From Candidatus Segetimicrobium genomatis (GTDB taxonomy: Bacteria > Sysuimicrobiota > Sysuimicrobiia > Sysuimicrobiales > Segetimicrobiaceae), in NCBI GenBank assembly GCA_005882275.1, contig VBAK01000108.1, positions 3,317 to 67,316 on the forward strand: DNA of 64,000 bases, written 5' to 3'. The translations under genes and the position numbers were made by a program. Of this stretch, positions 3,079 to 58,587 are shown one piece after another. The notes below the pieces were generated by a model. The model was not told the DNA's origin. It searched no databases and worked only from the letters and a program-made list of their open reading frames with translations. Each line of letters begins with the position of its first letter. Position 1 is the stretch's first letter.

Positions 3079-6000
3079 GTGCGCCTGAAGCGCCTGGAGC
3101 TGAGCGGGTTCAAGACCTTTGCCGAGCGGACCGCGATCGAGTTCGCCTCCCAGGTCACCGGCGTGGTGGGCCCAAACGGGAGCGGCAAGACCAACATCTT
3201 CGATGCGATCCGCTGGGCGCTCGGTGAGGGAAGCCTGCGGTCGCTGCGGGGCGTGCGCACCGAGGATATCATCTTCGCCGGCACGGAGCGGCGGCGCCCG
3301 CTGGGCCTGGCGGAAGTGACGCTCGTGCTGGACAACGAAGACGGCACGCTCGCCCTTCCAGCGGGGCCCAACGGCGACGCACCGCCGATGCCCCTGGCCT
3401 TCGCGGAGGTCACGGTGACCCGCCGCGCGATGCGCAACGCCGGGAGCGAGTACTTCATCAACGGGCTTCCCTGCCGGCTGCGGGACATCCAGACGATGTT
3501 CCTCGGGACGGGGCTCGGCGGGCATTCCTACGCGCTGGTCGCCCAGGGCGAGGTCGAGCAGATGCTGGACGCCTCGCCGGAGGAGCGGCGGATGATCCTC
3601 GAGGAAGCCGCCGGGCTGGCCAAGTACAAGCGGAGGCGTCACGACGCCGAGCGGCGGATGGCGGCCGCCGAATCGACGGCGCTGCGCGTGACCGACATCC
3701 TGGGAGAGCTCGACGCCCAGACGGCCCAGCTCGCGGCGCAGGCGGAGGCGGCGGAGCGGTACCAGGCGCAGACGCGCGAGCTGCGGACCCTCGAGCTCTC
3801 GCTCCAGGTGGAGGAGGTCCGGCGGTGCGTCCGGGCCCAGCGCCGCGTCCGCGAGCACCTGGAGGAGATCGCCGCGCGCCGCCGCGAGGCCGAAGAGGCG
3901 GTGCGGGCGCTCGCCGAGCAGTGCGCGGCGCTGGACCGGCGGGCCGTCGAGGCGGGCCGCGAGTGGGAAGAGATCCAGCGTTCGCAGATGACGCTGACCG
4001 AGCGCCGCGCCCACGCCGCCGCCGAGGTGGACCTGGCCGCCGAGCGCCTCCGCGGGGTGGAGGGGCAGCGCCAGCGGCTCGACCGGGAACTCGCCCGCGC
4101 CCGCGCGGAGGGCGATGCCCTCGAGCGCGAGCGCGCCGCCCTCGCGGACACCATGGGAGACCTTGCCGCCGGGGTGGACGGGGGGCGGGCAGAGCTCGAG
4201 GCCGCCGAAGCGAAGGTGCTTGAGCTGGACGCGGCGGCCGCCCACGGAGAGGAGCAGCTGGACGCCGGCCGCGCGGCCGCGCGCGCCATTGCGGAGCAGC
4301 GCGCGCACGCCGCCAACGAGGCGGCCGCCGTGGAAGCCCGCGAAGCGGCGCACCGGGATCGGGCGGCCGGACTGGGCGAACGGGTCCACTACTTGACGGA
4401 GCGGTTGAGCGCGGTGCGCGCCGACCTCGCGGCCCGCGCGGGCGAATCCGAGAAGGGGGAGGCGGACCTGGAAGAGGCGCGCCGCCGCCTCGCGGCGCTC
4501 CGCGCCGATCTCCAGGCCCACTCGGCCGTCCGTGAGGCGCTGCTGGCCGAAGAGCGGCAGCTCGAGATCGAACGGGAGGGGCTCGCTTCCCGCCTCCGCT
4601 ATCTCGAGGAGGCCCGGGCGCAGTTCCGAGGCTATGACGGCGGCGCGCGGGAGATCCTGCTGGCGTGGCGGAGCAACCCTGCTCGGGTTCCCGGTCTGGC
4701 GGGAACGGTGGCGGAGTTCCTCAGCGTGCCCCGGGAACTGCGGCGGGCGTGCGAGGCCGCGTTGGGTGCCGGGCTCTCCGCGCTCGTGGTGGCCACGGTC
4801 GAGGACGCGCGGGCGGCCCTCGCGCTGCTCGGCGGGGAGGAGCGCGGGGGGGTGATGTTCGTCCCGGCGGCGGAGGTCTTGTCCGACGCGCCGCCGGCCG
4901 CGCCGCCGCCGGCGGCCGCGGATCCCGCGATGCTGGGGCGCGCCGTCGATCTGGTCCAGGTGGTGGGTCCGCATGCCGCCGCGATCGGCGCGCTCCTCTC
5001 TGATGTCTTCATCGTCGCGGACCTGGACGCCGCGCTGAGGCTGCGCGCGGGCGGATACCGCGGGCGTGTGGCGACGCTCGCCGGCGAGGTCCTCACGCCC
5101 CAGGGGGTGCTGATCGCCGGCCGCGACGGCGGGGATCGCGGGAGCATCCTCGGGAGGTCGGAAGAGGTGGCCGAGGTCCGCAGCGCATTGGATCGTGCGG
5201 AGGCGTCGGCCGGCGGGCTCGGGCAGCGCCGCGAGGAGAGCGACCGCCGCATTCGCGAGGCCGAGGGTGCCGCCGCGGCGGCCGCGGCGGACGCCGACCG
5301 GCAGGCCGAGGCGCTGGCAGAGGCCCGCCGGCGCCTCACCATCGTCGAGGCGGAGGCGGCGCGGCTGGAGGACGAGATCGCCCAGGTGCGCGCCGATGCG
5401 GCCGCCGCCGACCACGAAGCCGCCGCCCTGGCCGCCGTCCGCGAACGCCTGCGCCGGGACGCGGAGAGCCTGGAGACCCGTCTTGCCGAGGTGGAGCGGC
5501 AGGGGGCGGCCATGGCCGCCGAGGTGCGCGGCCAGGCCGGCGCCCGGCGCGACGCCGCAGCCCGGGTGACCGAGCTCCGGATCGCGCTGACACAGCTGGG
5601 TGGCCGGGTCGATGCGGCGAAGGCCAGGATCGCGGAGGTCGAGCGCGGGCTCGTCCAGGTTGCCGGCCGGTGCGACGAACTCGCGGGCGAAGGCCGTGAT
5701 CTCGCCGCCGAGGCGGTCCGCCTCGATGCCGAGCGGACGGCCGCGCGGGCGCGCTGCGAGGCGCTCGACGCGGAGAGTGCCCTCCTTGCGGCGTCCCAGG
5801 CCGCGCTGGACGATGAGCGGGCCACCCTGGCCGCCCGCCGGACCGAAGCGGAAGCGGGGCACCGGGACGGCCTTGGCCGCGCCGCCGCGCTCGCCGACGA
5901 GGCGCACAAGGCGGAGGTCAAGCAGGCCCAGGTCGAGGCGGAGCTGGGCGGCGCGCGGCGGCGCCTGGAAGAGGAGTTCGGACTCCCCTTTGAACGGGCG

Positions 6001-6708: not shown

Positions 6709-7723
6709 TCCGGGAGACCCGGCAGACGGCAGCCCGGCAGGGCCGGCAGGCGGCAGCCCGGCAGGGCCGGCAGGCGGCAGCCCGGCAGGGCCGGCAGGCG
6801 GCAGCCTCCCGGGGTGGCTCGGGCGCCTCCGCGCCGGGCTGGCCAGAACCCGCCAGTCGCTCACCGCCCGGGTCGATGATCTGCTCGGCCGGGGCGTCGA
6901 CGAACGCTTCTACGAGGAACTGGAAGAGACGCTCGTCCAGGCCGACCTCGGCGTCCGCACCGCCACCACCGTCATCGCCCGCCTTCGGGCGCGGGTCCGC
7001 AGCGGTGCCGTCAGCCCGGACGCCCTCCGGCTGGAGCTGAGAGCGATCGTGACCGCGGCGTTGGGCGAGCCGGCGGCCCTCGTCCTCACGCCCCCTCCGG
7101 CGGCGGTGATCCTCCTCGGCACCAACGGCAGCGGGAAGACGACCACGGCCGGCAAGCTGGCGGCGCGCCTGCGGGGAGAAGGGAGGAAGGTGCTGGTCGC
7201 GGCCGCGGACACGTTCCGCGCGGCGGCCATCGACCAGCTGGGGATCTGGGCCGCGCGCGCCGGCGTGGAGGTGATCCAGCACCAGGCCGGGGCGGACCCT
7301 GCCGCGGTCGTCTACGATGCGGCCCAGGCCGTGCGGGCCCGGCACATCGACGTGCTGATCGTGGACACCGCGGGCCGGCTGCACACGAAAACGAATCTCA
7401 TGGCGGAACTCACGAAGCTCGACCGCGTCCTGCGCCGCGAACTGCCCGCCGCTCCCGTGGAGGTCCTCCTCGTGCTCGATGCCAATACCGGGCAGAACGG
7501 CATCGCGCAGGCCCGGCAGTTCAAGGCCGCGCTTCCGGTCACCGGGATCGTCCTCACCAAACTTGACGGCACCGCGCGCGGGGGCGTGGTGGTGGCGATC
7601 GCCGAGGATCTCGGGCTGCCGGTGAAGCTGATCGGATTCGGCGAAGGCCCGGACGACCTCCAACCCTTTGACCCCCGGGCGTTTGCCGAGGCGCTGTTCG
7701 TCCCCGACGCGCGCCCGGCGTGA
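6701..7723 (+). CDS. ftsY: Signal recognition particle receptor FtsY
   Basis: NG domain motifs [32 protein letters not shown]. The only canonical in-frame start is TTG 6701, which overlaps the smc stop by 8 nt. The N-terminus is a Gly/Pro/Ala repeat. Confidence 0.92.
6716..6806 (+). repeat. 24-bp tandem repeat (about 3.3 copies of cggcagcccggcagggccggcagg) encoding (GSPAGPAG)n at the FtsY N-terminus
   Basis: Direct reading: identical units at 6727-6750, 6751-6774 and 6775-6798, with partial copies on both sides. Confidence 0.9.
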
Positions 7724-13510: not shown

Positions 13511-13629
13511 CCGGGGCCCGGCCGCGCCTGCGGTGTAGGCCAGCCTGAGCCGGGGCCGGCGTCCGGAAGGCCAATCGAGGCGAGGAGTAGAACAAAGGTA
13601 AGACGTCCCGGTCCGCGGGGAGCGAGGCG

Positions 13630-14415
13630 ATGGACCCGCGCACGTTGACCGCTGCGCAGATCGGCGAGCACCTGGCACGCATGACGCGCCCCCGCAAGGC
13701 GTGGCTCCGTCTCCTGGCCGGCGATGCCCGCGTGACGGTGCGGGAGCTGGCGGCGCGGTACCAGGCCAGGCGGAACGCGGCACGGGCCGAGGCCCGGCGC
13801 CTGCGGGACCTGTACCGGGAGGAGCGCGCCCGGCGCCGCACCGGCCTGGTCGTCGCGGGGATCGATGAGGTGGGTCGGGGTTCGCTGGCCGGCCCGGTGC
13901 TGGCCGCCGCGGTGATCCTCCCGCCTCGCGCGCCCATCACCGGTCTCGACGACAGCAAGCGCCTCACCCCGGCGGCGCGGGAACGCCTCGATCGGGAGAT
14001 CCGGGCGCGGGCGCTCGGGCTCGCGATCGGAGCGGCATCCGTGGAGGAGATCGACCGCCTGAATATCCATGGGGCCTCCCGGTTGGCGATGGCGAGGGCG
14101 GTGGAGGCGTTGACCCCCGCTCCGGATTTCCTCCTGATCGACGGGCGGGACCGCCTTCCGCTGCGCTGCGCCCAGGCGGCGGTGGTCGACGGCGACGCGT
14201 CTCATGCCTGCATCGCCGCCGCCTCGATCGTCGCCAAAGTGGCCCGAGACCGGCTGATGCGCGACCTGGATGAGGCGTTTCCCGGGTACGGCTTCGCCGA
14301 GCACAAGGGGTACGGCACGGCCGAGCACCTCGACGCGCTCGCCCGCCGCGGCCCGTCCCCGGAGCACCGGAGGGCGTTCCTCCCCGTCATCCAGATGGGC
14401 CTGTTGCTGCTGTAA
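13630..14415 (+). CDS. rnhB: Ribonuclease HII (with about 75 aa N-terminal extension)
   Basis: GIDEVGRGSLAGPV, DDSKRLT, DGDASHACIAAASIVAKV, GYGFAEHKGYGT. Confidence 0.9.
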   Translation: MDPRTLTAAQIGEHLARMTRPRKAWLRLLAGDARVTVRELAARYQARRNAARAEARRLRDLYREERARRRTGLVVAGIDEVGRGSLAGPVLAAAVILPPRAPITGLDDSKRLTPAARERLDREIRARALGLAIGAASVEEIDRLNIHGASRLAMARAVEALTPAPDFLLIDGRDRLPLRCAQAAVVDGDASHACIAAASIVAKVARDRLMRDLDEAFPGYGFAEHKGYGTAEHLDALARRGPSPEHRRAFLPVIQMGLLLL

Positions 14416-41448: not shown

Positions 41449-42126
41449 GTGATCTTCCCCCTCCGCGACGACATCCCATCCCGCACCTTTCCTGTCGCGA
41501 TGTCCCTGGTGATGGGCGCGTGCGCGGCGGCGTTTTATTATACGCTGGCGCTCCCGTCGCCGGTCGAGGTGAAGCGGTTGTTTACGACGTTCGGGGTGAT
41601 TCCGGCGCAGGTCACCGGGGTCGCGGTCCCCACGCCCGCGGCGTTCCCGGTCCGGCTGGGGGCGAGCCTGTTCCTGCACGGAGGCTGGACGCACCTCCTC
41701 GGCAACATGCTGTTCCTGTGGATCTTCGCGGACAACGTCGAGGATGCGATGGGGCACGGCCCGTTCCTCGTTTTCTACCTCATCTGCGGCGCGATCGCGA
41801 ACCTCGTCCATGTGCTCGCCAATCCGCTGTCGACCGAGCCGACGATCGGCGCCAGCGGCGCGATCGCCGGGGTCCTCGGCGCCTACCTGCTGCTGTACCC
41901 GAGAGCGCGGGTGCAGCTGCTCGTCTGGCTGTTGTTCGTGTTCGTGCGGTTCGTGTGGGTGCCCGCGGTGCTGTTTCTGCCGGTGTGGGTGTTCCTGCAG
42001 CTGGCCTCGGGGCTGGCCACGCTCGGGGTTCCCACGGCGGGCGGCGTCGCCTGGTGGGCGCACGTTGGCGGGTTCGCGAGCGGCATGGCGCTGGCCGGGG
42101 TCTTCGCCGGCGGGCAGCGGCGGTGA
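41449..42126 (+). CDS. Rhomboid-family intramembrane serine protease
   Basis: HGGWTHLLGNMLFLW, catalytic GASGAIAGVLGAY, later H in WWAHVGGF; six TM segments. Confidence 0.88.
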   Translation: MIFPLRDDIPSRTFPVAMSLVMGACAAAFYYTLALPSPVEVKRLFTTFGVIPAQVTGVAVPTPAAFPVRLGASLFLHGGWTHLLGNMLFLWIFADNVEDAMGHGPFLVFYLICGAIANLVHVLANPLSTEPTIGASGAIAGVLGAYLLLYPRARVQLLVWLLFVFVRFVWVPAVLFLPVWVFLQLASGLATLGVPTAGGVAWWAHVGGFASGMALAGVFAGGQRR

Positions 42127-42191
42127 CAGGCGTCCCCTCCGCGGCCCGGGCAGGAAATTTTCACCTCGTCCCGAACGCCACACCTCCGGGG

Positions 42192-42313
42192 ACGGCAGGC
42201 AGAGGTTGCCCCCTCCGGGGACTCCAAACCGACGTAGAGATGACGGCAAGCAGAGGTTGCCCCCTGCGGGGACTCCAAACCGACGTAGAGATGACGGCAA
42301 GCAGAGGTTGCCC
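42192..42313 (+). repeat. 51-bp tandem repeat, 2.4 copies (locus R1 of a dispersed element family)
   Basis: Units at 42192-42242 and 42243-42293 differ at 2 positions. A 20-nt partial third unit runs to 42313. Unit: acggcaagcagaggttgccccctgcggggactccaaaccgacgtagagatg. Confidence 0.9.
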
Positions 42314-42376
42314 ACCGGAATCAGGCAGCGGCGGACACACGTTATCGTGTACAGAGAGAACACGGGGGAGAACCAT

Positions 42377-43597
42377 ATGTGCAGCATCCGGGTAGAAACC
42401 CTGCAGGGGATGCCGGTGAGTGAATTGCAGGTCGAGATGGTGGAGCGCAAGGGGATCGGCCACCCCGACTCGATCTGCGATGCCATTATGGACCGCGTGT
42501 CGATCGAGCTCAGCAAAGAATACGTGAGCCAGTTTGGCCGGATCCTCCACCACAACATCGACAAGGCCTTTCTCGTGGCGGGGGACGCCGAGGTCCGGTT
42601 CGGCGGCGGTATCGTCCGCGAGCCGATGAAGCTCATCTTTGGCGATCGGGCCACCGATGGGCTCAACGGCCGGGAGGTGCCGATTCGGGAGATCGCGATC
42701 CGGACGGCGAAGAACTGGCTGCGCGAGAATCTCCGGTTCGTGGATCCGGGCGGACCCGACACGATGGACGGTCCACATATGACGTACCAGTTGGAGATCA
42801 AGCCGGGGTCGGCCGAGCTCGTGGACATCTTCAGCCGGTCGACCATTGGCGCCAACGACACGTCCGCGGCGGTCGGGTATTGGCCGATGACCGAGACGGA
42901 GCGCCTGGTTCGCGAGACGGAGCAGTTCATCAATTCCCGGACCTTCAAAGAGGAGTTCCCGGAGGCCGGCGAGGACGTCAAAGTGATGGGCGTCCGGCTG
43001 GGACGCGAACTCCGTCTCACCTCGGCTGTGGCGTTCGTGGACCGCTTCATCGAGAGCGAGGCCCAGTATTTCCGCCGCAAGCAGCAGATCTACGAAGCCG
43101 TGATGGCGTTCCTCTCGAAGCGGACGACGATGGACAAGATCATCTTCGACCTGAACACCCTCGACGAGCCGGGACGGGGCGTCGGCGGCATCTACCTCTC
43201 GGTGCTGGGGACCTCCGCGGAATCCGGGGACAGCGGTCAGATCGGCCGGGGCAACAAGGTCAACGGCGTCATCTCGATCAACCGCCCGATGGGGACCGAG
43301 GCGGCCGCCGGCAAGAACCCGGTGTCGCACGTGGGCAAGATCTACTCGGTGTTCACCCACCAGGTCGCGCAGAAGGTGGCCGAGGAGGTCCCGGGCGTCC
43401 GCGAAGTGTACATCTGGATGGTCAGCCAGATCGGCAAGCCGATCAATGAACCCGTGACGGCCGCCCAGGTCATTGTCGCGAAGGGGGCCCGGAAGAGCGC
43501 GGTGGAGCGGCACGTCCACGAGGTCGTGGAGCGCGAGCTGGCCGGGATCCAGGTGTTCTGCCGGGACCTCGCCGCGGGCAAGTACAGCATCTGCTGA
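42377..43597 (+). CDS. Archaeal-type S-adenosylmethionine synthetase (methionine adenosyltransferase, PF01941-like)
   Basis: VERKGIGHPDSICDAI, ILHHNIDKA, ANDTSAAVGYWPMTETERLV, GTSAESGDSGQIGRGNKVNG, AAGKNPVSHVGKIY, SQIGKPINEP match the archaeal MAT family, not bacterial MetK. GGGGGAG SD 6 nt before the ATG. Confidence 0.88.
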   Translation: MCSIRVETLQGMPVSELQVEMVERKGIGHPDSICDAIMDRVSIELSKEYVSQFGRILHHNIDKAFLVAGDAEVRFGGGIVREPMKLIFGDRATDGLNGREVPIREIAIRTAKNWLRENLRFVDPGGPDTMDGPHMTYQLEIKPGSAELVDIFSRSTIGANDTSAAVGYWPMTETERLVRETEQFINSRTFKEEFPEAGEDVKVMGVRLGRELRLTSAVAFVDRFIESEAQYFRRKQQIYEAVMAFLSKRTTMDKIIFDLNTLDEPGRGVGGIYLSVLGTSAESGDSGQIGRGNKVNGVISINRPMGTEAAAGKNPVSHVGKIYSVFTHQVAQKVAEEVPGVREVYIWMVSQIGKPINEPVTAAQVIVAKGARKSAVERHVHEVVERELAGIQVFCRDLAAGKYSIC

Positions 43598-48379: not shown

Positions 48380-49395
48380 ACGATCCCGTCTCCCGCGAGG
48401 TCGAGGATCTTCGTTCCGCGTGCGAGGCGCTTCGCGGGGAACTCGCCCGGGTCATCGTCGGCCAGCGGGAAGCGCTCGACCTCGTCATCACGGCGCTGCT
48501 GGCCGGGGGGCATGTGCTCCTGGAGGGGGTCCCGGGGCTCGGGAAGACCCTTCTCGTCCGGACCCTCGCCCAGACGCTGGACCTGCGGTTCTCCCGCATC
48601 CAGTTCACGCCCGACCTCATGCCCGCCGACATCCTCGGCACCAACCTGGTCGTGCAGGACGACGCCGGCCGCCGGCGGTTCGAGTTTCAGCCCGGGCCCA
48701 TCTTCGCCCAGATCGTGCTGGCAGACGAGGTCAATCGCGCGACCCCGAAGACGCAGTCGGCGCTCCTCGAGGCGATGCAGGAACACGCCGTCACGGTCGC
48801 CGGCGAGTCGCGCCGGCTCGAGGAGCCCTTCTTCGTTCTGGCGACCCAGAACCCGATCGAGATGGAGGGCACCTATCCACTGCCGGAAGCCCAGCTCGAT
48901 CGATTCCTGCTGAAGCTTCGCGTGCCGTTCCCCGGCCTGGAGGATCTGCAGGCGATCATCGATCGGACGACGGGGCCCGACGAGCCCGCGGTGCGGCGGG
49001 TCGCCGACGGCGCGGCCGTGCGGCGGCTGCAGTTGCTGGTCCGCCAGGTCCCCGTCGCCGGCCACGTGCGCGAGTACGCGGCGCGGCTGGTGCTGGCGAC
49101 GCATCCTGAGTCGGACGGCGCCTGCGCGCTGGCCCGCCGTTTCGTCCGCCACGGAGCGAGCCCGCGCGGGATGCAGGCGTTGATCCTCGCCGGGAAAGTT
49201 CGCGCCCTCGCCCTCGGGCGGTTCAACGTCGCGATCGAAGATGTCCGCGCCCTCGCGCTGCCGGCGCTGCGCCACCGCATCATTCTGAACTTCGAGGGTG
49301 AGGCGGAGGGGGTGGATGCCGACGATGTGCTCCGGGCGGCCATGCAGGAGGTCGAGGCCCCGGATCTCCCGGCCGGGCCGCGCGAGGCGCGATGA
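48376..49395 (+). CDS. MoxR-family AAA+ ATPase
   Basis: ATGA overlap with the upstream stop. Walker A GVPGLGKT, Walker B LADEVNRATPKTQSALLEAM, ATQNPIEMEGTYPLPEAQLDRF. Confidence 0.93.
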   Translation: MNDPVSREVEDLRSACEALRGELARVIVGQREALDLVITALLAGGHVLLEGVPGLGKTLLVRTLAQTLDLRFSRIQFTPDLMPADILGTNLVVQDDAGRRRFEFQPGPIFAQIVLADEVNRATPKTQSALLEAMQEHAVTVAGESRRLEEPFFVLATQNPIEMEGTYPLPEAQLDRFLLKLRVPFPGLEDLQAIIDRTTGPDEPAVRRVADGAAVRRLQLLVRQVPVAGHVREYAARLVLATHPESDGACALARRFVRHGASPRGMQALILAGKVRALALGRFNVAIEDVRALALPALRHRIILNFEGEAEGVDADDVLRAAMQEVEAPDLPAGPREAR

Positions 49396-50477
49396 CGGTA
49401 TCGTTGCCCCCTGCGGGGACGCCAAACCAGAGTGGAGCCAGCAGCAAGCAGAGGTTGCCCCCTGCGGGGACGCCAAACCAGAGTGGAGCCAGCAGCAAGC
49501 AGAGGTTGCCCCCTGCGGGGACGCCAAACCAGAGTGGAGCCAGCAGCAAGCAGAGGTTGCCCCCTGCGGGGACGCCAAACCAGAGTGGAGCCAGCAGCAA
49601 GCAGAGGCTGCTTGATCCGGGCTTTCTCCAGAAGCTCGAGGCGCTGAGCCTGCTGAGCCGGAAGCGGGTCTGCGGCGTGCAGCGCGGGGAGCGACGCAGC
49701 ACCGCCCGCGGACGCGGCGTGGAGTTCGACGATTACCGGGCGTACCAGCCCGGCGACGACTACCGGTATATTGACTGGAACGTCGTCTCGCGCCTCGACC
49801 GCCTCTTCATCAAGCTCTTCTCCGAAGAAGAGGATCTCGACGTCCTCCTCATGGTCGATACCAGCGCGTCGATGGCGGCGGGTCATCCGAGCAAGCTGCT
49901 GCTCGCCAAGCACCTGGCCGCCGCCGTGGGCTACATCGGCCTCGCCAACCTCGACCGGGTGGGCGTCAGCGCCTTCGCCTCGACGGCCGGGGCCCGCCTG
50001 GAGCGTCTGCGGGGCCGCGCGCGGGCCGGGGACCTGCTCGGGTTCCTCGAGAAGCTCGAACCCTCCGGGGAGACCGACCTCCTGGCGGCGATGCGCCGGC
50101 AGTTGGCCGCGTCCCGCCGCCGCGGGCTGCTGGTCCTCCTGACGGATCTGTTCGATCCCCGGGGCTACGAGCGCGCGCTGCTGCTGGCCCGCGCCCGCCG
50201 GTTTCAGACGTTCCTGATCCACCTGCTGGCCGACGAAGAACTGGCTCCGCGTCTCGCCGGTGACCTCCGGCTGGTGGATGCCGAGACGGGGCGCGCGGTC
50301 GAGGTGACGGTGGATGCCGAGGCGCTGCGGGCGTACGCGGCGGCGCGCGACGCGTTCTTCCACGGCATCGAGCGGTTCTGCTTCCACCACGGCATCGACT
50401 ATCTGCGCACCACGACATCGGTCTCCGTGGAATCACTGGTCCTGCGGTGGCTGCGTCAGGGAGGGCTCGTCCGGTGA
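49392..50477 (+). CDS. DUF58-domain protein (vWA-like fold) with repeat-encoded N-terminal extension
   Basis: ATGA overlap with the MoxR stop. GVEFDDYRAYQPGDDYRYIDWNVVSR and MIDAS-like VDTSASM are DUF58 hallmarks. Residues 5-72 are (LPPAGTPNQSGASSKQR)x4. Confidence 0.85.
   Translation: MTVSLPPAGTPNQSGASSKQRLPPAGTPNQSGASSKQRLPPAGTPNQSGASSKQRLPPAGTPNQSGASSKQRLLDPGFLQKLEALSLLSRKRVCGVQRGERRSTARGRGVEFDDYRAYQPGDDYRYIDWNVVSRLDRLFIKLFSEEEDLDVLLMVDTSASMAAGHPSKLLLAKHLAAAVGYIGLANLDRVGVSAFASTAGARLERLRGRARAGDLLGFLEKLEPSGETDLLAAMRRQLAASRRRGLLVLLTDLFDPRGYERALLLARARRFQTFLIHLLADEELAPRLAGDLRLVDAETGRAVEVTVDAEALRAYAAARDAFFHGIERFCFHHGIDYLRTTTSVSVESLVLRWLRQGGLVR
49403..49606 (+). repeat. 51-bp tandem repeat, 4 perfect copies (locus R2 of the dispersed element family), in frame within the DUF58 ORF
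   Basis: Units 49403-49453, 49454-49504, 49505-49555 and 49556-49606 are identical: gttgccccctgcggggacgccaaaccagagtggagccagcagcaagcagag. Confidence 0.95.
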
Positions 50478-58399: not shown

Positions 58400-58427
58400 C
58401 GCGCCGCCGCGTTCCGGGCTGCCTTGG

Positions 58428-58487
58428 CTCCGACTTCTGCTTGCTGTTTGCTCCATTTCGGTTTGGAGTCCCCGCAGGGGGACTTCT
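58428..58487 (-). repeat. Solitary inverted copy of the 51-bp element family (locus R3)
   Basis: The reverse complement reads gagaagtccccctgcggggactccaaaccgaaatggagcaaacagcaagcagaagtc. The 25-nt core tccccctgcggggactccaaacc matches R1 exactly. Confidence 0.85.
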
Positions 58488-58587
58488 CGCATCGATCGGC
58501 GTTCGCGCCGCAGGCAGGGACGCCTTCGAGGCGGAACTATAGACAGGCAGGTGTTCCAGTCCACCCCAATGTGAGGGAAGGTGCGCT

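Follow-up and report, generated by a model that had tools for sequence, protein, structure and literature searches.

What is the 51-bp tandem repeat that lies upstream of an archaeal-type S-adenosylmethionine (SAM) synthetase gene, metK, in Candidatus Segetimicrobium genomatis, and why does it return elsewhere in the same stretch of DNA? The repeat was found in 64,000 nucleotides of contig VBAK01000108.1 (positions 3,317 to 67,316), which we call the window and whose own numbering is used throughout. It forms one array in front of metK (R1), a longer one at the 5' end of a DUF58 gene (R2) and an inverted single copy further on (R3). The first-pass annotation, made from the sequence alone, took these loci for a dispersed element family and named three candidate identities: an interspersed repeat resembling REP or MIRU, an operator array, or a small structured RNA module. 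The evidence favours the first of these, although the repeat is a member of no such family. We consider it likely (probability of about 0.7) that we are dealing with a new family of small non-autonomous interspersed mosaic repeats, specific to one lineage and spread by an activity that we can only infer. The insertion/absence polymorphism of the family is real and consists of exact 51-nt inserts and of composite ones. The family has a strong sense-strand bias, a mosaic organisation and a turnover of units within arrays; it has no RNA structure, no conserved reading frame and no theme among the genes that it adjoins.

Comparison of many copies places the natural 51-nt unit between a C-run (CCCCC) at its start and GAGGTTG at its end. 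The unit begins with a CCCC(C)-loop-GGGG hairpin, continues with R-C-K-CCAAACC (ACKCCAAACC) and a purine-rich stretch of consensus GGAGTGGGGCCAACG, and closes with GCAAGCAGAGGTTG. The stem of the hairpin is 4 bp long, or up to 6 bp in a GGGGGC subtype, and the remainder of the 51 nt is purine-rich and predicted to be unstructured; purines account for 73% of the 29 nt at the 3' end, as counted in 112 distinct units. Hardly any variation is seen, between sites or between species, in a 22-nt core. It had been proposed that a conserved core of 36 nt alternates with a freely varying spacer of 15 nt. The 15-nt segments of R1 and R2 do match at 6 of 15 positions, as can be read directly from the sequence. 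Within each array of the window, however, they are identical and follow the family consensus, and the supposed spacer is a moderately conserved purine-rich stretch.

The family is restricted to one uncultured soil bacterial lineage (metagenome-assembled genomes, MAGs, related to ANGP1), and it was previously undescribed. When one genome per species (596 Gb) was queried with the core, 14 loci were found, 10 of which belong to two related MAGs, "Bacillati bacterium ANGP1 NP_6" (VBAN01) and "bacterium SMAG_U12602" (DATHLI01). The two hold 11 exact core matches on 10 contigs, the orthologous metK and DUF58 sites among them. Four matches in other phyla (Lentisphaeria, Cloacimonadaceae, Spirochaetota, Anaerolinea) were judged unrelated because they consist of the 22-nt core alone with no other part of the unit; by a rough estimate, their number is about what chance would produce for a 19-base pattern in 596 Gb. 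A scan of soil metagenomes with the pattern GGGGNCNCCAAACC-N21-AGAGGTTG returned 92 stretches, every one from soil, and the viral contigs scanned gave 0 matches to the family. A profile search of 113 sequences (950 kb; contigs are cited below by L-numbers) detected 197 units in 132 arrays, of which 82 are single and 41 double, with a maximum of 6 units. Once merged by their flanks, they amount to about 56 distinct sites, spread over metagenomes and related genomes, which bears out the original idea of a dispersed family. This site list was gathered with a pattern that fixes part of the core and therefore misses divergent subfamilies, and its sites are drawn from a few related species. Soil-metagenome contigs that encode an identical metK protein (L001-L006) carry both tandem loci of the window, with differing numbers of units.

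Evidence for insertion comes from three clean pairs of filled and empty sites, in a histidine kinase, an S9 peptidase and miaA. Units inside genes are always sense and in frame. In a GAF-HisKA_3-HATPase_c kinase (L075/L106), the insert APSGGSKPERGQRQAEV stands between the two catalytic domains; the empty sites are found in L123/L124, where the two orthologous proteins (P0002, P0003), 94-95% identical, lack exactly these 17 residues (51 nt). The DNA of the empty site reads CGCCGGCC-TG-CGGCCGC and that of the filled site CGCCGGCC-TG-[CCCCC...CAGAGGT]-TG-CGGGCGC, i.e., a 51-nt insert with TG on either side. In the S9 peptidase of L054, a 75-nt composite (GGAGCGCAAGGCGCTCAAG hairpin, unit and CGGCA), missing from the L015 orthologue, lies between the propeller and the catalytic domain. 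The miaA gene of L043 contains a 117-nt composite made of two AAAGCCGATCG, a purine-rich module that we call B, and a second B module that encloses a unit; the composite is missing from the miaA of L063, which is 91% identical. The kinase and peptidase inserts are read as APSGxSKP..QRQAEVA and the miaA insert as CPLRGLHTGVEQPACRGW; together with R2, the three in-gene insertions use all three reading frames of the unit. The dinucleotide TG that borders the kinase insert on both sides also fits the insertions into B modules, and R2 shares GTTG. Over the whole set, the first hairpin follows a TG at 33 of 76 sites, and in many cases this TG is simply part of the GGTTG tail of a preceding partial unit.

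One site gave rise to an annotation artefact. At L015:6275-6370 (- strand), ARAGORN reports a 96-nt "tRNA-Val(GAC)" that overlaps a unit and the neighbouring CTGACCG/CGGTCAG palindrome and is almost certainly a false positive; no other site has a direct repeat of 12-13 nt around a unit.

Within the window, whose G+C content is about 71%, Tandem Repeats Finder reports R1 at 42191-42313 (period 51, 2.4 copies, 97% matches) and R2 at 49403-49611 (period 51, 4.1 copies, 99% matches), in agreement with the 2.4 and four units first counted. The 36-nt core occurs five times at no more than 2 mismatches (chance expectation 0.00), and its 22-nt part CCCCCTSCGGGGACKCCAAACC seven times, six on the + strand and once on the - strand at 58460-58481 (chance expectation 0.01). 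The inverted third copy proved to be one unit on the - strand, and a profile search with the units found no additional copies anywhere in the 64-kb window. The loci and the genes that adjoin them are as follows.

42183-42344, + strand: R1, the whole array including truncated and decayed units, upstream of the archaeal-type SAM synthetase gene
42183..42208, + strand: truncated leftmost unit of R1, CCTCCGGGGAC + GGCAGGCAGAGGTTG with the inner part gone, placed by alignment of relatives and a weak profile match at 42191-42208
42209..42259, + strand: R1 unit 1, 51 nt, hairpin loop CTCC
42260..42310, + strand: R1 unit 2, 51 nt, hairpin loop CTGC, missing in one same-species contig (L003)
42311..42344, + strand: decayed R1 unit with a 13-nt internal deletion, CCC-ACCGGAATCAGGCAGCGGCGGACACACGTTA, of which a fuller copy is kept at this place in L074 (alignment)
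42377..43597, + strand: archaeal-type S-adenosylmethionine synthetase gene (metK; PF01941), with its own Shine-Dalgarno motif GGGGGAGA at 42364-42371
49392..49406, + strand: start of the DUF58 open reading frame (ORF), MTVSL, whose ATG overlaps the stop codon of a bpMoxR ATPase gene as ATGA; the array is inserted behind TCGTTG
49407..49610, + strand: R2, four 51-nt units, in frame at the 5' end of the DUF58 ORF
58419..58500, - strand: R3, a composite of a B module, GCCGATCGATGCGAGAAGT ... GAGCCAAGGCAG, with one nested 51-nt unit at 58431-58481
13569..13602, + strand: solo B module without a nested unit, GGCCAATCGAGGCGAGGAGTAGAACAAAGGTAAG, intergenic, 28 nt before an ATG at 13630

R1 occupies part of the 250-nt spacer between the end of a rhomboid gene (42126) and the metK ATG (42377). 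Since the array consists of a truncated, two intact and a decayed unit, the metK leader is mostly repeat-derived, and the likely effect of R1 is to lengthen that leader. The single core substitution that had been noticed between R1 units, CTGC to CTCC in the hairpin loop, is present; it is not the only core difference in R1, as the leftmost partial copy has GCAGGC in place of GCAAGC. Rfam detects no SAM riboswitch upstream of this metK, and a scan for sigma-70 promoters and terminators around R1 gave no match. The archaeal-type synthetase is itself out of the ordinary here, standing in an otherwise bacterial neighbourhood (rpsB-tsf-pyrH-frr-uppS-cdsA-dxr-rseP-ispG-rhomboid).

R2 sets in 12 nt past the DUF58 ATG (49392). 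Without the array, the gene would read ATG ACG GTA TCG TTG CTT GAT CCG, i.e., MTVSLLDP, the usual DUF58 N-terminus. Because no start codon lies between R2 and the conserved LLDP, the array is very probably translated as part of DUF58, and its likely consequence is an N-terminal extension of 17, 34 or 68 residues that varies between strains. R2 is the same kind of event as the in-gene insertions of the relatives. A crude codon-based caller starts DUF58 at 49557, inside the last R2 unit, and thereby excludes most of the array from the predicted coding region. It had been remarked that both arrays are located at gene starts and share one frame (QRLPPAGTPN) with the genes behind them. The frame is indeed open and in phase with both genes, but that it is meaningful is not supported, given the TAG and TAA codons found elsewhere and the use of three frames in all.

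R3 is antisense to both flanking genes and was found in every same-species contig examined. A sigma-70-like match on the - strand at 58536-58563 (TGGACT-16-TATAGT, 9/12, 0 in shuffles) is directed at R3, which lies about 50 nt downstream; on the basis of this consensus match, R3 might give rise to an antisense or short transcript that runs in its own sense direction. The solo B module at 13569-13602 is the uninterrupted form of the module that hosts the R3 unit and is comparable to uninterrupted copies in L094/L095. In relatives, the B module also occurs in tandem and hosts nested 51-nt units there.

The mosaic character of the family extends beyond the window. The unit joins up with three or more different short modules, namely a hairpin (GAGCGC-NNN-GCGCTC), CGGCAGGATCG... 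and B, which is purine-rich (GCCGATCGAAGCGWGGAGT/GGAGCAAAGGTAAG). It often comes after the hairpin module or precedes CGGCAGGATCG..., and at nine sites it is nested in the B module between GGAGTG and GAGCAAAGG. The spacer between rplX and rplE in the ribosomal-protein operon is ordinarily a few tens of bases long. In the relatives it measures about 400 nt and is composed wholly of mosaic repeats (L032:5230-5690, L078:4290-4680), with the unit and a 70-nt spacer module joined into a 121-nt higher-order repeat.

Units are also gained and lost within arrays. In the window and L001-L006, R1 has two units, save for one unit in L003, and R2 has one unit in L001 and L003, two in L004 and four in the window; altogether, unit number varies among contigs at 8 of the 27 sites that were covered more than once. 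The metK site can be followed through three lineages whose flanks are about 92% identical: the window has unit a twice, L074 has b, a and the fuller third unit, and L020/L056 have b only. The 15-nt segment looks so different among relatives because whole units were gained, lost and duplicated. Hypermutation of this segment, considered for the metK sites of the window and L020, is ruled out by the three-lineage alignment, in which distinct units were differentially lost or duplicated. Decayed or internally deleted units are found at 42311-42344 of the window and also in L017/L069.

Most copies are intergenic, found in 5' leaders or separating co-directional genes. In the latter position, units are sense at 33 sites and antisense at 6 (p = 1.4e-5), and the downstream gene is on the strand of the unit at 46 of 54 sites (p = 1.4e-7). 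Often, units take up all the room between adjacent operon genes. In L013/L018, the upstream TGA stands 2 nt before the unit and the next ATG 3 nt behind it (TGAgc-unit-ccgATG; ..CAGAGGTTGccgATG), and L014/L092 (tcATG), L022 (aaatcGTG), L051 and L016/L029/L052 are similarly tight. Several units finish 2-8 nt ahead of a start codon, as in ..AGAGGTTGccgATG, ..AGAGGTTGtcATG and ..AGAGGTTGaaatcGTG. At the tight sites, the terminal GAGG is the sole Shine-Dalgarno-like motif at a workable distance; elsewhere, metK included, the gene retains a Shine-Dalgarno motif of its own further downstream. The neighbouring genes are without a common function and include metK, DUF58, rplE and L25, glgA (glycogen synthase), genes for a methyltransferase, a permease, Usp and a HAD hydrolase, and a STAS-domain gene.

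These observations can be brought together in the following way. New copies would be made by a trans-acting activity that places the element beside TG, as suggested by the kinase site, the B-module sites and R2. Once in place, arrays may expand and contract locally through replication slippage or unequal recombination. Copies would survive since they are "translation-neutral" in the sense orientation: their length is a multiple of three, they are poor in stop codons, and they would form little RNA structure. Of 112 distinct units, 71% are free of stops in all three sense frames, compared with 25% of shuffles. The terminal GAGG(TTG) could, in addition, stand in for the Shine-Dalgarno sequence of the next gene. 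Such neutrality would explain both the sense-strand bias and the tolerance of units within operons, that of the ribosomal proteins included. A bolder proposal goes further and sees in the repeat a new type of "translation-compatible" mobile micro-element, a 51-nt cassette with its own ribosome-binding site and an unstructured leader, which would insert beside TG in the orientation of transcription by a single-strand- or RNA-based route, without inverted repeats or regular target duplication, and whose unit number would serve the host as a contingency switch for translation (the metK leader) or for protein N-termini (DUF58). We regard this proposal as unlikely.

Several points weigh against a mobile family. 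At the repeat loci, the part that was searched, neither a transposase nor another trans-acting enzyme was found, and the genes between neighbouring arrays are ordinary housekeeping genes. Terminal inverted repeats are absent: the unit begins with CCCCCTGCGG and ends with CAGAGGTTG (reverse complement CAACCTCTG), and these ends are not complementary. A long flanking direct repeat (12-13 nt, CTCCCTCTGACC(G)) is seen at one site only, L015/L054, and most sites have nothing beyond chance, so that none of the known transposition chemistries can be assigned. The core is far better conserved than the purine-rich segment, which could reflect selection at the level of the host rather than mobility, although the conservation of GGGGNCNCCAAACC and AGAGGTTG is itself overstated because the metagenome scan demanded those bases. 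Differences in copy number come from short-read metagenome assemblies, which are able to collapse 51-bp tandem repeats. The orientation bias may in part be a replication-strand bias, which is inseparable here from gene orientation. Finally, the gene starts come from a crude caller, a codon log-odds model for which long ORFs of high GC3 at the repeat loci served as the training set.

The main rival holds that the host has domesticated the repeat as a cis-acting RNA module that would adjust how the downstream gene is translated or how stable its mRNA is, unit number being the tuning knob. The module would be either a purine-rich leader or standby site free of structure, equipped with a small 5' hairpin and a Shine-Dalgarno sequence of its own, or else a place where an RNA-binding protein attaches. 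Such a role would agree with the strong sense bias and the closeness to start codons, with the terminal GAGG 5-11 nt ahead of several of them, with the high conservation of the core relative to other parts of the unit and with the presence of units in the ribosomal-protein operon. It would also agree with the metK leader RNA being significantly less structured than its shuffles (z = +1.77; 196 of 200 shuffles at least as stable). However, copies occur in frame within three unrelated genes, about 15% of copies, R3 of the window among them, are antisense, and the decayed or internally deleted copies at orthologous sites point to weak constraint on individual sites. Moreover, most sense copies precede a gene that has kept its own Shine-Dalgarno motif, the neighbouring genes share no functional theme, and covariation is lacking. 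We therefore consider this module possible but unlikely; in the window, there is no evidence for a dedicated regulatory role. The narrower suggestion of a small structured RNA is not supported. The CCCC/GGGG stem is paired in 98% of 112 distinct units and never varies, so that it yields no evidence of covariation, and the mutual information between unit columns reflects subfamilies, not base pairs. The units of both window arrays fold with z of about +0.8, that is, they are less structured than shuffles. Rfam has no match in the whole window at gathering thresholds and returns one spurious miRNA match (E = 9.9) for 42100-42420 at E up to 10. A candidate second stem, CTCC/GGRG, was rejected, being paired in 77% of cells against 76% in column shuffles; K=G variants such as R2 break it uncompensated.

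A binding site at the DNA level, with the hairpin or core recognised in an operator array or by a nucleoid-associated protein, gyrase or IHF, appears improbable to us. The near invariance of the 22-nt core and the tandem layout, which would give cooperative sites, are what such a site might look like, and binding to several host proteins is reported for REP/BIME elements (PMC2817692). But a site in double-stranded DNA should be indifferent to the direction of transcription, and the bias is 46:8. The core also has no dyad symmetry beyond its 4-bp stem, and no regulator gene consistently adjoins the repeats. The operator array of the first-pass annotation is, in particular, hard to reconcile with units inside coding sequences, with a unit number that varies between strains and with unrelated neighbouring genes. 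Two further readings have very little left in their favour and are contradicted by the data. One is a coding repeat, in which a 17-codon unit encodes a conserved, selected peptide (LPPAGTPNQSGASSKQR). In its favour, the period of 51 is 3 x 17, both downstream genes of the window are in phase with the frame, which is open, and R2 is very probably translated, but the PPAGTPN frame contains TAG in some units (L012/L014) and is followed by TAA between the unit and the metK ATG in L020, the in-gene copies use three different frames, most copies are intergenic, and the codon-based caller begins DUF58 only near the end of R2. The other is a degenerate or orphan array similar to CRISPR, with a 36-nt repeat and short spacers. 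The resemblance is superficial: 36 conserved nt are joined to 15 variable ones, and an A-rich tail comes after the hairpin; the hairpin with ...AAACC behind it recalls type I-E CRISPR repeats. The would-be spacers, however, are 15 nt only, identical within each window array and themselves part of a purine-rich consensus; 82 of 132 arrays are single units, units occur inside genes, viral contigs have no match, and there is no cas gene among the neighbours examined. An integron attC site was considered as well and dismissed, as the sequence has no R''/R' core sites (RYYYAAC/GTTRRRY) and its neighbours are housekeeping genes, not cassettes.

How does a mosaic family of this sort relate to those already described? 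Compared by described features, it belongs to the known kind of small non-autonomous interspersed bacterial repeats and to no named family within it. With REP and BIME elements (PMC2817692, PMC3116915) it shares short GC-rich hairpins, high copy number, non-autonomy, a position between the genes of operons and an organisation in mosaics, here in the form of nesting in B modules, GAGCGC-N3-GCGCTC and CGGCAGGATCG neighbours and the 121-nt repeat of the rplX-rplE spacer. REP, BIME and REPIN sequences, however, are imperfect palindromes of about 20-40 nt with a stem-loop over most of their length, whereas our unit has a stem of 4-6 bp in 51 nt. REP and BIME copies stand in inverted pairs or alternate in orientation, and ours form direct head-to-tail arrays, the higher-order repeats being direct too. 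REP is strictly extragenic, in contrast to the in-frame copies in the histidine kinase, the S9 peptidase, miaA and the 5' end of DUF58. The 51-nt unit further differs from REP/BIME in its strong sense-strand bias, no conserved GTAG-type 5' tetranucleotide is seen, and the cognate of REPIN, a RAYT (Y1 transposase), was not found among the genes at the repeat loci, the part that was searched.

The likeness to MIRUs, as summarised in PMC12548453, is that of direct tandem repeats of about 50 bp in operon spacers and at gene starts, co-oriented with genes, variable in number between strains (here subject to the short-read assembly caveat) and apparently sparing downstream expression. MIRUs carry a small ORF that overlaps the stop and the start of the flanking genes and is coupled to the downstream gene by a -4 overlap (PMC12548453). 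Our unit has no conserved internal ORF; tight sites such as L013 lack a start codon in the unit, some units carry stops, and it is the terminal GAGG that gives continuity at the tight sites. R2 does begin at an ATGA overlap but continues into DUF58 free of stops and is fused, not coupled. The lineages are also unrelated, and there is no known sequence relationship. RPEs (reviewed in PMC10969869) are similar in that a small repeat stands in frame at loops or domain boundaries of unrelated housekeeping genes and is presumably translated, as in our three filled/empty pairs and the DUF58 N-terminus. RPEs are palindromic, about 100-150 bp long and have one conserved peptide frame (PMC10969869), whereas the present unit of 51 nt (or composites of 75-117 nt) is not palindromic, uses any of three frames and is mostly intergenic. 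MITEs (miniature transposable elements with inverted repeats) such as Correia/NEMIS, ERIC and RUP (PMC10969869, PMC3184786) are likewise small, non-autonomous and dispersed, can supply expression signals and have presence/absence polymorphism. The absence of terminal inverted repeats means that our element is not a MITE; no regular target-site duplication is evident beyond the 2-nt ambiguity of TG, and the element is much shorter and forms tandem arrays. A CRISPR array would differ in its unique spacers of similar length and its nearby cas genes, and the present repeats are mostly single units.

The repeats have practical consequences for annotation and assembly. Gene callers applied to this lineage will misplace starts, fuse neighbours or report odd low-complexity inserts at the units, as in the case of DUF58, which is called at 310, 327 or 361 amino acids, and assemblies break or collapse at these repeats. 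At L048:1759-3696, ORF-based calling joins a HAD/Cof-type phosphatase gene and a creatininase-family gene across a unit, an artificial fusion that arises because the units are open in all frames. If strains truly differ in unit number, the DUF58 N-terminus and the metK leader would be natural variable-number tandem repeat markers for typing strains of an uncultured soil lineage. The clean filled/empty pairs, taken with the sense bias, also make the family a good system for studying how tiny repeats without inverted ends spread and how operon expression is spared.

Other repeats and neighbouring sequences were met in the course of this work. At L081:11161-11335 (- strand), two units lie directly 3' of the end of a tRNA gene (..GGTTCGAATCCTGGCCCCCCAGCCA), where L083 and L086 carry other short sequence instead. 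The window itself contains a 24-bp tandem repeat of 3.7 copies at 6719-6806 (CCGGCAGGCGGCAGCCCGGCAGGG; 98% matches, Tandem Repeats Finder score 169), which is unrelated in sequence to the 51-nt family. In Anaerolinea thermolimosa (NZ_DF967967.1, L010:3217-3500), a 68-bp repeat of 4.1 copies directly follows tRNA-Lys(CTT) (3164-3236), an odd arrangement in its own right, in which the final 20 nt of the tRNA (TTCGAGTCCCCGGTGGATCA) recur in every unit. The opposite strand of this repeat has a hairpin, CCCCCTGCGGGGAC[GC]CC[GA]AACC, that is almost identical to the core of the 51-nt family; the rest of the unit is not shared, and the resemblance is probably a coincidence.

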